From Octopus vulgaris (lineage: Eukaryota), in the NCBI GenBank assembly GCA_951406725.2, contig OX597821.1, positions 61,814,001 to 61,878,000 on the forward strand: DNA of 64,000 nucleotides. Reading direction: 5' to 3'. Below the pieces are notes generated by a model. The model did not search any database. It was not told the DNA's origin and saw nothing but the letters and a program-made list of their open reading frames with translations. The translations under genes were made by a program, and so were the position numbers. Shown in pieces: positions 35,373-62,869 of the stretch. Numbering within the stretch: the stretch's first letter is position 1; every line of letters begins with the position of its first letter.

Positions 35373-38282
35373 CAGAGATCAAAGAGGGTTGCCGACAGAG
35401 ATCAAAGAGGGGTGCCGACAGAGATCAAAGAAGGTGTCGACAGAGATCGACGGGGTGCCGACAGAGATTAAAGAGGGTGCAGACAGAGATCAAAGGGGTG
35501 CCGACAGAGATCAAAGAGGGGTGCCGACAGAGATCAAAGGAGGTCCCGACAGAAATCAAAGAGGGGTGCCGACAGAGATCAAAGGGGGTGCCGACAGAGA
35601 TCAAAGAGGGGTGCTGACAGGTGAAAAAGGGTGCCGACAGGGATCAAAGTGGGTGCCGACAGAGATCAAAGAGGGGTGCTAACAAAGATCAAAGGGGGTG
35701 CCGACAGAGATCAAAGAGGGGTGTCGACAGAGATCAAAGAGGGGTGCCGACAGAGATCAAAGGGGGTGCCGACAGAGATCAAAGAGGGGTGCCGACAGAG
35801 ATCAAAGAGGGGTGCCGACAGGAATCAAAGAGGGTGCCGACAGAGATCAAAGAGGGGTGCCGACAGAGATCAAAGAGGGGTGCCGACAGAGATCAAAGAA
35901 GGTGTCGACAGAGATCGACGGGGTGCCGACAGAGATTAAAGAGGGTGCAGACAGAGATCAAAGGGGTGCCGACAGAGATCAAAGAGGGGTGCCGACAGAG
36001 ATCAAAGGAGGTCCCGACAGAAATCAAAGAGGGGTGCCGACAGAGATCAAAGGGGGTGCCGACAGAGATCAAAGAGGGGTGCTGACAGGTTAAAAAGGGT
36101 GCCGACAGGGATCAAAGTGGGTGCCGACAGAGATCAAAGAGGGGTGCTAACAAAGATCAAAGGGGGTGCCGACAGAGATCAAAGAGGGGTGTGGACAGAG
36201 ATCAAAGAGGGGTGCCGACAGAGATCAAAGGGGGTGCCGACAGAGATCAAAGAGGGGTGCCGACAGCAATCAAAGAGTGTGCCGACAGAGATCAAAGAGG
36301 GGTGCCGACATAGATCAAAGAGGGTGCCGACAGAGATCAAAGAGGGGTGCCGACAGAGATCAAAGAGGGGTGCCGACAGAGATCAAAGAAGGTGTCGACA
36401 GAGATCGACGGGGTGCCGACAGAGATTAAAGAGGGTGCAGACAGAGATCAAAGGGGTGCCGACAGAGATCAAAGAGGGGTGCCGACAGAGATCAAAGGAG
36501 GTCCCGACAGAAATCAAAGAGGGGTGCCGACAGAGATCAAAGGGAGTGCCGACAGAGATCAAAGAGGGGTGCTGACAGGTTAAAAAGGGTGCCGACAGGG
36601 ATCAAAGTGGGTGCCGACAGAGATCAAAGAGGGGTGCTAACAAAGATCAAAGGGGGTGCCGACAGAGATCAAAGAGGGGTGTCGACAGAGATCAAAGAGG
36701 GGTGCCGACAGAGATCAAAGGGGGTGCCGACAGAGATCAAAGAGGGGTGCCGACAGCAATCAAAGAGGGTGCCGACAGAGATCAAAGAGGGGTGCCGACA
36801 TAGATCAAAGAGGGGTGCCGACAGGAATCAAAGAGGGTGCCGACAGAGATCAAAGAGGGGTGCCGACAGAGATCAAAGAGGGGTACCGACAGAGATCAAA
36901 GAGGGGTGCCGACAGAGATCAAAGAGAGGTGCCGACATAGATCAAAGGGGATGCACAGAGATCAAAGGGGTGCTGACAGAGATCAAAGGGGGTGCCGACA
37001 GAGATCAAAGAGGGTGCCGACAGAGATCAAAGGGGGTGCCGACAGAGATCAAAGGGGGTGCCGACAGAGACCAAAGAGGGTGCCGACAGAGATCAAAGGG
37101 GGTGCCGACAGAGATCAAAGAGGTGTGCTGACAGAGGTTAAAAAGGGTGCCGACAGAGATCAAAGAGGGATGCCGACAGAGATCAAAGAGGGGTGTCGAC
37201 AGAGATCAAAGAGGGATGCACAGAGATCAAAGGGGGTGCCGACAGAGATCAAAGGCGGTGCCTACAGAGATCAAAGAGGGGTGGCGAAAGAGATCAAAGA
37301 GGGGTACCGATAGAGATCAAAGAAGGGTGCTGACAAGGATCAAAGAGGGTGCCGACAGAGATCAATGGGGTGCCGACAGAGATCAAAGGGTGGTGCCGAC
37401 AGAGATCAAAGGGTGGTGCCGACAGAGATCAAAGGGGGTTCCGACAGAGATCAAAGAGGGGTGCAGACAGAGATCAAAGAGGTGTGCCGAGAGAGACCAA
37501 AGGGTTGCCGAAAGAGATCAAAGAGGGGTGCCGACAGAGATCAAAGGAGGTACCGACAGAGATCAAAGGGGATGCCGACATAGATCAAAGAGAGGTGCCG
37601 ACTGAGATCAAAGAGGGGTGCCGACAGAGATCAAAGGGGGTGCCGACAGAGATCAAAGACGGGTACCGACAGAGATCAAAGAGGGATGCCGACAGAGATC
37701 AAAGAGGGGTGCCGACAGAGATCAAAGGGGGTGCCGACAGAGATCAAAGACGGGTACCGACAGAGATCAAAGAGGGATGCCGACAGAGATCAAAGAGGGG
37801 TGTCGACAGAGATCAAAGAGGGATGCACAGAGATCAAAGGGTGTGCCGACAGGGATCAAAGGGGGTGCCGACAGAGATCAAAGAGGGGTGCCGAAAGAGA
37901 TCAAAGAGGGGTGCCGATAGAGATCAAAGAAGGGTGCCGACAAGGATCAAAGAGGGTGCTGACAGAGATCAATGGGGTGCCGACAGAGATCAAAGGGGGG
38001 TGCCGACAGAGATCAAAGGGGGGTGCCGACAGAGATCAAAGGGGGTTCAGACAGAGATCAAAGAGGGGTGCAGACAGAGATCAAAGAGGTGTGCCGAGAG
38101 AGACCAAAGGGTTGCCGAAAGAGATCAAAGAGGGGTGCCGACAGAGATCAAAGGAGGTACCGACAGAGATCAAAGGGGATGCCGACATAGATCAAAGAGA
38201 GGTGTCGACAGATATCAAAGGGGGTGTCGACAGAGATCAAAGAGTGTGCCGAAAAAGATCAAAGATGGTGCCGAAAGAGATC
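35373..38282. repeat. 21-22-bp tandem satellite (gccgacagagatcaaagaggggt) with higher-order repeats
   Basis: About 2.9 kb of contiguous monomers. Variant landmarks recur at 35445/35913/36403 (468 and 490 bp) and 37365/37972 (607 bp). Confidence 0.97.
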
Positions 38283-51449: not shown

Positions 51450-53000
51450 ATCCTGATTCACAATTCCTCCGTCTAAGCAGGCTCTGTAGTGACGACCATG
51501 ACTTTCAGCCTCAGTTTCAATTCATGTCTGGCCACTTCATCCTACGTAGATATCTCCTCATCACTATCCACACCACCCTTACCAGACACGTTCCTGGGAC
51601 CGTGCGTCTGCTCTCTCCCCCGCACCCACCCCGCTGTCTCCTGTCTCCCTTTTCCCTTCATCTACCACATCATCTCCTACCTCTCCAACGCGCCATTCTC
51701 CGAGACTTCCGGCGACTCCATTCCGACCACTCCACTTCGCACATCATCGCTAACTTACCCCATCTCATCCTTCAAACGAGCCCACGACCTACTAGACCCC
51801 TTGATCCACAGCTTCTTCCCTAATCTATCCTCCCAACCCGGATCGTTCCCCTATTCCCGCCCACGCTGCCGCACTTGCCCTTACCTCTCCAACACCACGC
51901 TCCTCACCGGCACCCATTATCGACCCTATCACATCACTGACTTCTTCACCTGTACCTCTACCGATGTCATCTACTACATCTACTGTTATCTCTTCCCTTC
52001 TCTATACATCGGGCAAACGGGACGCCACATCTCAGACCGGTTCGCGGAATAACTCCGAAACACCCCTGCCTTGCACCATTTCCACTCTACCAGTCACTCT
52101 GTGATTGGATTGTCCTTGCACAGGGGCCATCCGGACTACCGTTTGTGCCGTGAACAGGGATTATTCTTCTCTCTTCGCACGTTTGCGACATATGGCCTCA
52201 AATCTCCTCCCTTCTTCATCTAACCTCCTCTTTTCCCACCCTAGACCTAATTCTTTCCACTCACCTCTCCTCTCTTGCTCCGACTCCTACTTCATCTCTT
52301 CACACCTATATTCCTCTCTTCTCTTCTCTTCTCTTCAATCTTACCCACATTCTCCCTTTCCCCTTCATCGTCACCCTTCCCTCGTAACCCGACCCCTACA
52401 CAATCCCACCCCATCCCTTACACCCACTCCGACATGCCCCACTTCTACCGCACCTCTACCCCACCTTCAGCCTACCCACATACGCCCCCTCTACACTCAC
52501 CCTCAGCCTAAACTACAGTCACCCTTGATTTTCCCACTCACGCCTCCCCCACCTCGCAATACCATCACAACACACTACAAACCACTACCCCATACATTAC
52601 ATTATATCCCATCACACAACCACCCACAGACTAGTACTGACCACTTCCCAGACCCACATAAACACTCCGACACATACACACACGTCAAGGTAACCAGCTC
52701 TATCCCACACGCACATACATACTCTCTTATACATACCCACGCGCACCTATGTTTTGAGATCACAACTACTTTATTATCTCCCCTTCTTTCTAGATCTCCT
52801 GTGTGACCCCTCTGTCCGGCATTCGTCATCGTCGATCGCTACACATTCTTTATTTTCTTTCCTTGTTTCTTTTTGTGTTCCGTTCTGTGGAAGAGCATAG
52901 GCACGAAACGTTAAAGACTTCCTCACTTCCCGAGCGTTAAACTAATACATCTGTTTTTTGTGTGCACCACCTGTCTTCGTGTTTTTTGTGAATTCTTCCT
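51450..53000 (+). mobile_element. 5'-truncated Penelope-like element (RT thumb, GIY-YIG endonuclease, C-rich 3' UTR)
   Basis: [53 protein letters not shown]. Frameshifted. Both ends lie in (TA)n. Confidence 0.92.
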
Positions 53001-55339: not shown

Positions 55340-55970
55340 GCGAGAAGTCGATACTAGCACCACGAAGGAACAACAAATTTTCTCCCAAAACCTGATGACA
55401 AGAAATCCAAAGAATTACCGAATAACATCTCTCAATACCACCTACAAGATCCTCACATCCATATCAACTGACAGAATATACGCTTTCCTTGAACAGAGAT
55501 CTAACCCGCCTCAAGCTCAAAGAGGCTGCAAAAAGAATGTTCATGGTGCAAAGATCAAATGCTCATAAGTGACATAATTGTGGAGAATTGCTGGAGCAAA
55601 AAAGAAGTACCTCAGTATGTCATGAATAGACTGCAGGAAAGTGTTTAATAGTGTCCCACGTAACTGGATACTCAACGACCTTGAGATATATAAGATCTTT
55701 CCTGTCATCTCCAAATACTTGCAAGGTAGCATGGCCATAGTAATGGGATGAGCCAAACTAACAACATCAACATCAAACGAGGCATCTTTCAAGGTGACTC
55801 CCTCTCCCCATCACTCTTCTGCATGGCACTGATCCCACTCTCAAACGAACTAAATAACACCAGGTATGGGATCAAATCTTACAATAAGACTATGAACCAT
55901 CTGTTTTATATGGACGAGCTGAAACTGTTTGTTAGAAATGACGAAGAGCTAGTTGGGTTGCTAACAACCC
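55340..55970 (+). mobile_element. R4/Dong-like RT internal fragment (pseudogene)
   Basis: PKNYRITSLNTTYKILT, QRGC, IDCRKVFNSVP, RGIFQGDSLSPSLFCMALIPLS, NHLFYMDELKLF. Confidence 0.88.
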
Positions 55971-56600
55971 CACTATATATTTGGCTAATCAAAATTCAAA
56001 CCAAACAATCTGCTATAATATTTTAAATATATAAATACTACGTTGCCATACTCTGCAAGTAACTCTTAATTTCATAAGCATGTTTTACTACGGACTTCTT
56101 GATTAATGTTTACTCTCGTTCAGTTGCAGTGATTAAGCTATTTCATACATAGTTAATAGATTTTGATAAAGCCCATGCGATATACATCGCATTGATATAC
56201 TTTTATATTTTACGCTTAGTTATGAACTAACACATCGATAACTTCGTCTATTAATAAAGTGAAAAACAGTAGATTTAACGGAGAAGATAAAAGTAATTTG
56301 GCAATAAAACGTAATGGTGTCTCTGTCGATGTCAGAATAGTTAATCTTAGTTTACATTGCTAGCATTGTTTAAATGAATATCTAGAATATTCTGAAGAAC
56401 TCAAAAGATGTCTGCACTTGTTTTCCATTAAAAAAACGTGGGATATTATTGAAAACACATGTTCTAGCGAATCTATTGTTTTGCATACACAAAAATAAAG
56501 TGACGGTCTCTTATGTGAAGAATATTGTGATTATGTTTTTCACCCACAAATTAATGTGATTCACTTGTTTGTGGAAAATGCACCATATAATTTAAACCAT

Positions 56601-58610: not shown

Positions 58611-58642
<32 letters not shown>

Positions 58643-58670
58643 GGAAAAAAGCAACAAGAATGGATTAAAA

Positions 58671-58758
58671 TCTCGGTACGATCGTTTCGTACGAGGACAT
58701 CTTTAATAAGCTACAAAAAATGCAGTGAATACAGATGGCTCGTACTCGTCAGCCGAAA
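58671..58758 (-). ncRNA. Canonical type I hammerhead ribozyme with extended helix II
   Basis: Reverse complement: tttcgg CTGACGA gtacgag-[43 nt]-ctcgtac GAAAC gatc GTA ccgaga. All core nucleotides are canonical, G10.1-C11.1, 7-bp perfect helix II base, palindromic helix III ACGATCGT, GUA cleavage triplet. Confidence 0.88.
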
Positions 58759-58779
58759 AAATATCAGAGAATTCCCAAA

Positions 58780-58830
<51 letters not shown>

Positions 58831-62037: not shown

Positions 62038-62869
62038 GTTCCACACCAACTCTCCTGTCTTTAAAAAAATGTGGGTCTTAGAAATCTCCTTCTTAGAAAC
62101 TTCACAGCTCCCAGCTCCGCAAAACCAGGAATCTTTAAATGTTCTCGCCGACGATGTAACACATGCCCCTACATCAACAATATTATCACCATCACGGGGT
62201 CCAATAAGCAATATCATATAATACACCACTACTGGTGCAATTTGGCCAATCTCATATTGCATTGCATGCAAAGTCTGCGATGCGCTTTACATTGGAGAAA
62301 CAGGACGGCGTCTTGGGTATCGTATTCGCTAACACATCAGAATGATAACGCTTCGTATGCCAGGCCGACCTGTCGCCACACGCTTCAACACTTTGAATCA
62401 TTCTATTGCATATTTATCAGTGTGTGGTATGGCATTGCACTACGGATCCCCCTTCTTCAGGAAACGAAAAAGCAACATCTCATATTTGATCTTGGTATTA
62501 TGTCCACAAAAAGGTATGAATTAACGTTTTTCCTTTCATCCTTTTACCTCCTCTTAATTCGTCTTTACCCTTTTTAATCCTCCTTCCACACTCTCTCTGC
62601 GACATTCTCGTATTAACTTACCTCTACTCTCTCCATCTTTTTCCTCCTCCTATCTGCACGCCATCTCCTATAACTTCTGTTTCACATCAGCAGCCCGCGT
62701 TATTCTGCGATCATTATGAGTTGCTGGCAGTTTTTCAAGCTGGGAGGATGTAAACTCTGCTTGACTTTATTCTCCTTTTCTTCTCTTTCAATGCTTTCTG
62801 ATGAATGATTGAATCCGAAACGTTGTATATTCCACTCCTCATAGCAAGTTCATTTCTTTCCATATTTTT
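62036..62869 (+). mobile_element. 5'-truncated Penelope-like element (GIY-YIG, 3' UTR with HHR motif)
   Basis: PGIFKCSRRRCNTCPY, ANLIYCIACKVCDALYIGETGRRLGYR (other frame). ctgatgaatgattgaatccgaaacgtt at 62798-62824. Confidence 0.9.

Follow-up and report, generated by a model that had tools for sequence, protein, structure and literature searches.

A hammerhead ribozyme with a long helix II at the end of a probable Hydra-clade Penelope-like element in Octopus vulgaris

Introduction

On contig OX597821.1 of Octopus vulgaris (assembly GCA_951406725.2) a stretch of 64,000 nucleotides, positions 61,814,001 to 61,878,000, contains a cassette of 146 bp which is embedded in a TA microsatellite and whose minus strand spells a hammerhead ribozyme with an unusually long helix II. 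In the following we call the whole stretch the window and number positions from its first letter. What is this cassette, and why is its arm so long? A sequence-only reading had offered two answers to the first question, the terminal repeat (pLTR) of a Penelope-like element (PLE) or a non-autonomous retrozyme-like unit, and had added that the ribozyme would cut any host pre-mRNA transcribed on the minus strand. Hammerheads in the pLTRs of the Hydra clade of PLEs, targeting of (TA)n and solo truncated ends are already known, and taken by itself the locus would be ordinary, a very short 5'-truncated PLE copy. The role of the hammerhead in endonuclease-bearing PLEs, however, has been stated to be still unclear (PMC8557442), and for insertion in vitro hammerheads are dispensable (PMC11167929).

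The predicted hammerhead

By sequence match and mapping, the cassette (58638–58783, minus strand, as are all parts of the ribozyme) represents the 3'-terminal 146 nt of a PLE, a part of the pLTR with a tail-less "short" end. As had been noticed, (TA)n lies on either side: judged by repeat composition, positions 58611–58637 form the target microsatellite at the 3' junction of the element and 58784–58830 the repeat at its 5' junction, where one base can be assigned to either side. Read from its 5' end the ribozyme begins with the first strand of helix I (UUUCGG, 58753–58758), followed by the catalytic core C3–A9 (CUGACGA, 58746–58752) and by the extended helix II, for which sequence and folds confirm the unusual length of 57 nt (58745–58689). 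Then come GAA (58688–58686), the palindrome ACGAUCGU of helix III (58685–58678), A17 (58677), the scissile bond predicted from the hammerhead layout between 58677 and 58676, and the 3' strand of helix I (CCGAGA, 58671–58676), which completes a helix of 6 bp. Helix I is supported by two-sided changes in subfamilies and helix II by folds and covariation. The latter has a basal stem of 7 bp (predicted pair probability 0.93–0.97), a middle stem of 5 bp (catct/agatg), an asymmetric internal loop and an apical stem of 5 bp (ctgca/tgtag) with a U6 loop. Its internal loop carries on the 3' side the hexamer AUUAAA (58702–58707), 25 nt before the scissile bond, which by its conservation is a candidate poly(A) signal. 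A U/GU-rich tract (58645–58663), common to sister subfamilies in the alignment, starts 13 nt past the bond.

The letters of the motif and every core nucleotide are as the sequence-only reading had given them, and a type I descriptor recovered the site as its sole match in the 64-kb window. In 60 Markov-shuffled windows the same descriptor gave no match in its strict and three in its loose form. What we find is the type I arrangement, a CUGANGA ... GAAA ... UH core with three helices and an open helix I. The fold of the 101-nt core region has a z score of -3.7 with none of 200 shuffles equally stable, and that of the full 146 nt a z score of -2.1 with 8 of 200 shuffles equally stable. An Rfam scan, in contrast, listed no hammerhead family up to E = 1 and returned only miRNA matches driven by the microsatellite; this miss was probably caused by the long insert in helix II. 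Judged by its letters, with the core intact, a 6-bp helix I, a 57-nt helix II and a palindromic helix III, the predicted hammerhead is real. The description "fully canonical" is right for the core but not for helix III, which in the monomer has 2 bp only with a predicted pair probability of 0.002.

Copies of the cassette in the genome

A DNA search in which 40 of 1,052 candidates were scored listed 42 matches, the window copy included, and 32 of these are identical over all 146 nt. With 293 matches of an exact 26-nt ribozyme probe the motif is repeated genome-wide. Because the window copy is identical to 31 other listed copies, it is by its sequence young, and its intact core needs no selection specific to this site. 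The junction of (TA)n with the 5' end of the cassette was used as a further probe and has a single match in 2.8 Gb, the window itself. At each of the 29 other loci that were fetched the cassette is preceded not by (TA)n but by sequence shared within the family, its 3' UTR, and in copies which bear an ORF it maps to the very terminus of this 3' UTR. On the other side, 80 of 82 family records show TA repeats directly after the 3' end; six of these 80 are tandem copies, whose own 5' UTR opens with a short AT run, and the records still include some repeats of one insertion and come from best-match lists biased to young copies. Apart from the cassette no piece of this PLE family is present in the 64-kb window. 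The cassette thus stands alone at its locus but not as a family, since the other copies continue upstream.

From these data the cassette very probably corresponds to the final 146 bases of a Hydra-clade PLE, a copy truncated at its 5' end which was left in a TA microsatellite by reverse transcription that stopped early. Of the two earlier answers the first, the pLTR, thereby holds: the hammerhead is of type I, its helix III is palindromic and the cassette maps to the end of the element; a later 5' deletion of a longer insertion would leave the same appearance at the locus. The second answer, a self-contained non-autonomous retrozyme- or SINE-like unit of 146 bp amplifying via small circular RNAs, can hardly be true, for although it would account for (TA)n on both sides of a cassette with no other family sequence in the window and for hundreds of identical copies of the stretch, and although another hammerhead does occur in this genome in tandem arrays of ~545-bp period, it is refuted for this assembly by the unique 5' junction, by the upstream continuation at all 29 other loci and by 5' ends which vary along the element, some falling inside the ribozyme, and the loci examined contain no tandem array of a 146-bp unit, compared with the repeats of 150–450 bp which define such elements (PMC7229834). 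Metazoan non-LTR retrozymes resemble the cassette in that they are non-coding, carry type I hammerheads and are related to the pLTRs of PLEs (PMC7229834; bioRxiv 10.64898/2026.07.22.740005). They are, however, fixed-length non-coding units in tandem (PMC7229834), whereas what the window contains is one truncated end whose 5' boundary is unique. The arrays of ~545-bp period (G000:C1:33099609-33105376, C1:71597377-71603427 and L159–L161) are themselves retrozyme-like and unlike the cassette; their unit shows a type I hammerhead pattern with a helix II of 26–27 nt and the palindrome ACGTACGT.

Among the ORFs listed for 40–64 kb no host gene was found around the cassette; these ORFs resemble repeats and retroelement debris. 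Two decayed frames on the plus strand (51477–52052 and 62065–62577) contain a Cys-rich linker followed by GIY-YIG-like residues and have no Pfam match; presumably they resemble the endonucleases of Neptune-type PLEs. About 220 nt past the second frame, before a (CA)n tract, there is a second minimal hammerhead-like motif with a helix II region of 11 nt (62798–62827, plus strand), which failed a stricter descriptor. A reverse transcriptase fragment lies at 55730–56026 on the plus strand (Pfam RVT_1, E 1.9e-06, below the cut-off), and positions 35373–38282 are occupied by an array of ~130 copies of a 23-bp unit, strongly purine-rich on the plus strand.

The parent element

Walking upstream from the cassette sequence led to an open frame of 875 aa in locus L032 and to full-length frames in L086 and L087. 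The full-length element consists of the pLTR with its hammerhead, a leader of 208 nt, an ORF of 1,072 aa for reverse transcriptase (RT) and GIY-YIG endonuclease, a 3' UTR of 1,295 nt and the hammerhead again. From the stop codon it is 1,295 nt to the cut site and, where copies are in tandem, a further 208 nt from there to the following ATG; from cut to cut the unit measures ~4.7 kb (about 4,722 nt, the sum from two loci). The protein P0002, encoded by this single ORF in other copies and not in the window, has DKT at 124, YRDD at 355 and the GIY-YIG-like motif at 952, that is, first the RT and then a C-terminal endonuclease. P0002, P0003 and P0004 stand for three subfamilies. DKT is found at 124 in the first two and at 126 in P0004, and the RWK site, in a RIRWR/RIRWK context, reads RWR in P0002, exactly RWK in P0003 and RWA in P0004. 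All three proteins have the CxCx5C linker, CxxC before E and CxH after N, and in all three, as read from the sequence, the cysteine pair inside the GIY-YIG core is absent, so that there is no CCHH.

The Hydra clade is defined by a C-terminal GIY-YIG domain without CCHH, by RWK, DKT and the CxCx5C linker, by CxxC and CxH around the conserved E and N, by canonical hammerheads and by (TA)n targets (PMC8557442). Our family agrees with the clade and with Hydra-1_Obim in the single ORF with RT and C-terminal GIY-YIG, in DKT, RW(K/R), CxCx5C and CxxC/CxH, in the missing CCHH, in the type I hammerhead at the 3' end and in insertion into (TA)n (PMC8557442). It also shares 5' truncation, partial tandems and inverted copies, which together with a tail at one end make up the published PLE pattern (PMC8557442); in our family the pLTR carries the hammerhead and copies lie in partial tandem, or inverted and truncated at the 5' end, with a tail on one side (L086, L087, L089, L090 and L092–L094, and the pairs and ends described below). 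The family differs in its size of ~4.7 kb, described members being generally under 3 kb, in Asn-rich linkers (17% Asn overall) and in the 1.3-kb 3' UTR (PMC8557442). Compared by eye with Hydra-1_Obim (PMC8557442), P0002 is similar along the RT but represents a separate family in both protein and hammerhead.

Database searches contributed little to the assignment. Of the Pfam models GIY-YIG was matched by one truncated copy at E = 0.0024, short of its cut-off; nothing relevant came up in Pfam for the three full-length proteins, nor had P0002 a match in PDB. A homologue search with P0004 gave 1,378 matches among 8,000 scored, none with clade names, the named ones including proteins of Solemya and Argonauta. 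Motifs and the by-eye match to Hydra-1_Obim are thus what points to membership of the Hydra clade. The (TA)n target had also suggested an origin from Naiad, which we reject since the endonuclease is C-terminal here and N-terminal in Naiad; Naiad PLEs combine an N-terminal GIY-YIG with the lack of a canonical hammerhead.

Several copies of the family have uninterrupted frames of 976–1,091 codons. The ORFs at L087:2457-5675 (1,072 aa), L089:2377-5250 (957 aa) and L102:2396-4906 (836 aa) differ mainly in the Asn-rich low-complexity linkers between RT and endonuclease, with 17, 16 and 9% Asn.

Ends of the copies and insertion

The 3' ends of the family fall on two sharp points, of which the short one lies 39 nt and the long one 154 nt past the scissile bond. 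Of the 82 records 26 end short, 55 long, six of which run into the 5' leader, and one elsewhere; the window copy has the short end. Probes for the two ends match the genome 345 times (short, a probe apparently common to a sister subfamily) and 119 times (long). Between the two points lie 115 nt with which the leader of the next unit begins; the usual tail of PLEs, by comparison, is 30–40 bp (PMC8557442). The 5' ends, in contrast, are scattered from the RT domain to the inside of the ribozyme. When two copies abut head to head (gap 10 bp or less), 15 of 16 pairs consist of one long and one short copy, the remaining pair of two long ones and none of two short ones.

For Poseidon, an element of the anole, work in vitro has shown a tail bounded by two internal sites at which RT starts, and a template that is mainly uncut RNA (PMC11167929). 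By analogy with this system the two 3' ends may be two internal RT start sites. The element's own enzyme would nick the TA microsatellite and start reverse transcription, for the copy in the window 39 bases past the predicted cut site, and there it would have stopped early, after 146 nt. Since the scissile bond is read through in all copies, the template would be uncut or re-ligated RNA. Poseidon PAc of Anolis carolinensis is alike in its two internal RT starts downstream of the hammerhead, in its AT-rich target and in copies which read through the ribozyme; it belongs to another clade, its reverse transcription starts within the ORF at sites that do not resemble the target DNA, and its tail is 30–40 bp (PMC11167929), whereas in our family the two ends coincide with short internal TA runs of the non-coding leader. 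That priming relies on homology between the (TA)n target and the TA runs found internally at the two ends is no more than a lead, and against it stand some copies with TGTA at this place and the ends of family C, which are without a clear TA run.

Folding and cleavage

In the 146-nt RNA the active monomer is predicted at -22.8 kcal/mol and the minimum at -31.7 kcal/mol, a gap of 8.9 kcal/mol, and helix I has a predicted pair probability of ~0.2. The palindrome ACGAUCGU of two copies, however, would form a self-duplex of -10.0 kcal/mol. Cleavage in vitro was undetectable for single minimal PLE hammerheads and weak for dimers (PMC4209133), and the anole PLE hammerhead required its protein (PMC11167929). 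Taking the fold energetics of the monomer together with what Cervera and de la Pena observed in vitro (PMC4209133), we consider it likely that the ribozyme form is dimeric, perhaps assisted by protein. Its probable working setting would be a tandem transcript in which two palindromic helices III pair and a unit-length RNA is excised.

In the lone window copy the core would be intact through descent, and cleavage by this copy is predicted to be poor. For this reason the cutting of host pre-mRNA on the minus strand is unsupported, all the more as no host gene was found in the ORF listing and the active monomer lies 8.9 kcal/mol above the minimum. A regulator of this kind, cutting the minus-strand pre-mRNA around it, might be argued from the intact core and from a second copy in trans, which could complete helix III through the duplex described above. 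We consider it very unlikely nevertheless: a copy identical to 31 other listed ones is young and has its core without need of selection, in the 146-nt context neither helix I nor the monomeric helix III is predicted to form well, single minimal PLE hammerheads were inactive in vitro (PMC4209133) and the hammerhead of anole needed its protein (PMC11167929).

The long helix II across the genome

To return to the length of the arm, the pattern CTGANGA-N42-66-GAAAC-N4-GTAC has 12,437 matches in the genome compared with 75 for the reversed control, and the same pattern with N8-30 has 649 compared with 88, the two counts covering spacers of 42–66 and 8–30 nt. The long helix II is a trait of a lineage, and the window copy would have inherited it from this large lineage. 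The 206 pattern records listed comprise 95 distinct ones, and 27 relatives of the window's lineage were picked from them by hand for diversity and aligned. For 20 named pairs in these 27 relatives 91.3% of the cells can pair (81.7 +/- 1.0 after shuffling) and 10 of the 20 pairs have changed on both sides (5.9 +/- 1.1 after shuffling). Neither value was reached in any of 500 shuffles, and partners slid out of register pair at most in 54.6%; these scores are inflated by relatedness and by the fact that the structure was drawn from the same sequences. Two-sided changes occur in three of four pairs of helix I, four of five of basal helix II, two of seven of the apical stem and one of four of helix III. 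This count omits the middle stem of helix II, whose register is shifted by gaps placed by MAFFT, and the core, A15.1-U16.1, C15.2-G16.2 and one base of helix I are fixed by the search pattern, so that their invariance is no evidence. The inner four bases of helix III, however, were free in the search, yet they are self-complementary in each of ten different palindromes found among the genomic families. RNAalifold recovers three of the helices (I, III and the apical stem) and misses basal helix II, and a column scan of all pairs was swamped by G-U noise. Altogether the homologues keep the pairing of the motif by compensatory change.

Compared with published Hydra-clade members the arm of the window copy is two to four times longer: the 26 rows for Hydra in File S2 have at most 24 nt (stem, loop and stem), compared with 57 nt here (PMC8557442). 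Published pLTR hammerheads share the type I topology and a helix III that is short and palindromic, and they too occur as solo motifs left by truncated copies and as pairs on opposite strands 100–700 bp apart; what has been called a larger than usual helix II among them is 7–8 bp, compared with the arm of three segments and its conserved hexamer described here. In the spike moss element PLE-X1_sMoe, however, helix II is long as well, with 9 bp, a 35-nt loop and 9 bp adding up to 53 nt (PMC8557442), and arm length alone therefore has precedent. This element is from a plant, endonuclease-free, 28S-targeting and flagged as non-canonical, and by eye its loop contains neither AATAAA nor ATTAAA in the row as published (PMC8557442). 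The literature searched, to which supplements could add, contained neither long-helix-II hammerheads of the Hydra clade nor a poly(A) signal inside a PLE hammerhead. The hammerhead variants of Lunse et al. 2017 may include long helices II.

A hexamer in the arm

On the 3' side of helix II, AATAAA or ATTAAA is present in 24 of the 27 aligned relatives. With 0.83 parsimony changes per column the hexamer has changed less than the opposite bulge (2.5), the apical loop (3.3), the apical stem (1.57) and the flanks (4–5). Genome-wide, AATAAA occurs 16–27 nt before the scissile bond in 7,083 hammerheads (control 2) and ATTAAA in 3,086 (control 1), together ~10,000 and roughly four-fifths of the long-armed set, a share to be read with the different spacer windows of the two counts in mind and with counts reflecting family sizes. 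Two substitutions have spread through subfamilies, AATAAA to ATTAAA in that of the window and AATAAAA to AATTAAA in subfamily F, and a canonical signal was kept both times. Metazoan poly(A) sites have AAUAAA or AUUAAA 10–30 nt before the end and a U/GU-rich tract after it. The window, with the hexamer 25 nt before the scissile bond and the U/GU tract 13 nt after it, has this layout; the tract may be the downstream element or a context for the RT start.

The long helix II would most likely be a structured platform under sequence constraint, with an A-rich bulge that is read by a protein. Of the possible readers the poly(A) machinery is the leading candidate, and we put forward tentatively, from sequence conservation, that helix II contains a working poly(A) signal. 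A Hydra lineage of ~10,000 copies in which such a signal works within helix II and CPSF cuts a few bases from the scissile bond is a possibility, though a rather doubtful one. To the contrary explanation we give about an even chance: the long arm may be a tolerated structural expansion in which the hexamer is kept for pairing with the U-rich 5' strand or for docking on helix I and not for poly(A). In predicted folds of several subfamilies the A's of the hexamer do pair with UUU of the 5' strand, other families in the genome have helices II of 42–56 nt without a hexamer, and the sequence of the apical stem is conserved, too. Moreover, the 3' UTRs, with 63–70% A+T, contain 1–7 further canonical hexamers upstream, and the copies need RNA that runs past the hexamer. 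The pairing state of the hexamer, however, varies while its sequence is constant (it is bulged in L102, mostly so in the window copy, and paired elsewhere), the two different lineage-wide substitutions each leave a canonical signal, and the spacing of 16–27 nt together with the U/GU tract suits the general layout of a poly(A) site.

The other families with helices II of 42–56 nt (L145, L150, L152, L154, L155, L092:9798-9871, L095:8381-8454 and L102:8589-8662) have helix III palindromes of their own, and the search left their parent elements mostly unassigned; in some of them AATAAA or ATTAAA stands just before helix I or just after the cut. One of these hexamers within 20 nt before helix I is seen by eye also in 5 of the 26 published Hydra rows, a weak sign in view of AT-rich flanks (PMC8557442).

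Logan contigs, which were taken as RNA by guess and can speak for presence only, were inspected over two regions. With contigs of four runs on L086:6700-7950 no poly(A) loose end was seen near the ribozyme in the 24 of 34 rows viewed, and with contigs of four runs (one repeated) on L016:1430-1761 none in the 24 of 38 rows viewed; contig ends did not pile up at either region. Contigs of runs X1, X8, X10 and X11 bridge the scissile bond with at least 31 bases on each side and may derive from DNA.

Two further observations were made on these contigs. At L086:7017 (minus strand, ~367 nt into the ORF) one contig each of X1 and X4, which are two studies with two organism codes, has a loose end with a T-run. 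This would be a poly(A) junction on the sense strand, with no canonical hexamer just upstream and no A-run in the genomic copy, and premature polyadenylation early in the ORF is possible. At the family 3' end in L016:1467-1618 T>C and A>G differences are numerous in contigs of X8 and X11, core A15.1 included, at sites where 62–72 genomic records show no change; A-to-I editing of hairpin RNA from head-to-head pairs fits these differences, as would alleles or an unsampled subfamily.

Conclusions

While the locus is one short insertion among many, it leads to a single genome with more than 12,000 type I hammerheads with a long arm, about 20 times as many as short-armed ones on the same pattern, and the one long-armed hammerhead that was tested with Rfam was missed. 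With young copies whose ORFs are intact, with 3' ends at two sharp points and with regular inverted pairs of a long and a short copy, this family is a good model for PLE insertion, and the conserved poly(A)-like hexamer near the scissile bond provides a handle on the role of hammerheads in endonuclease-bearing PLEs. If the hexamer is indeed a working signal, one RNA element would pick between a tailed mRNA made through CPSF, a 2',3'-cyclic-phosphate end made by the ribozyme dimer and a read-through template for reverse transcription. The cyclic-phosphate end would be fit for circularisation, and the thousands of dispersed ends would be possible portable terminators for host transcripts.
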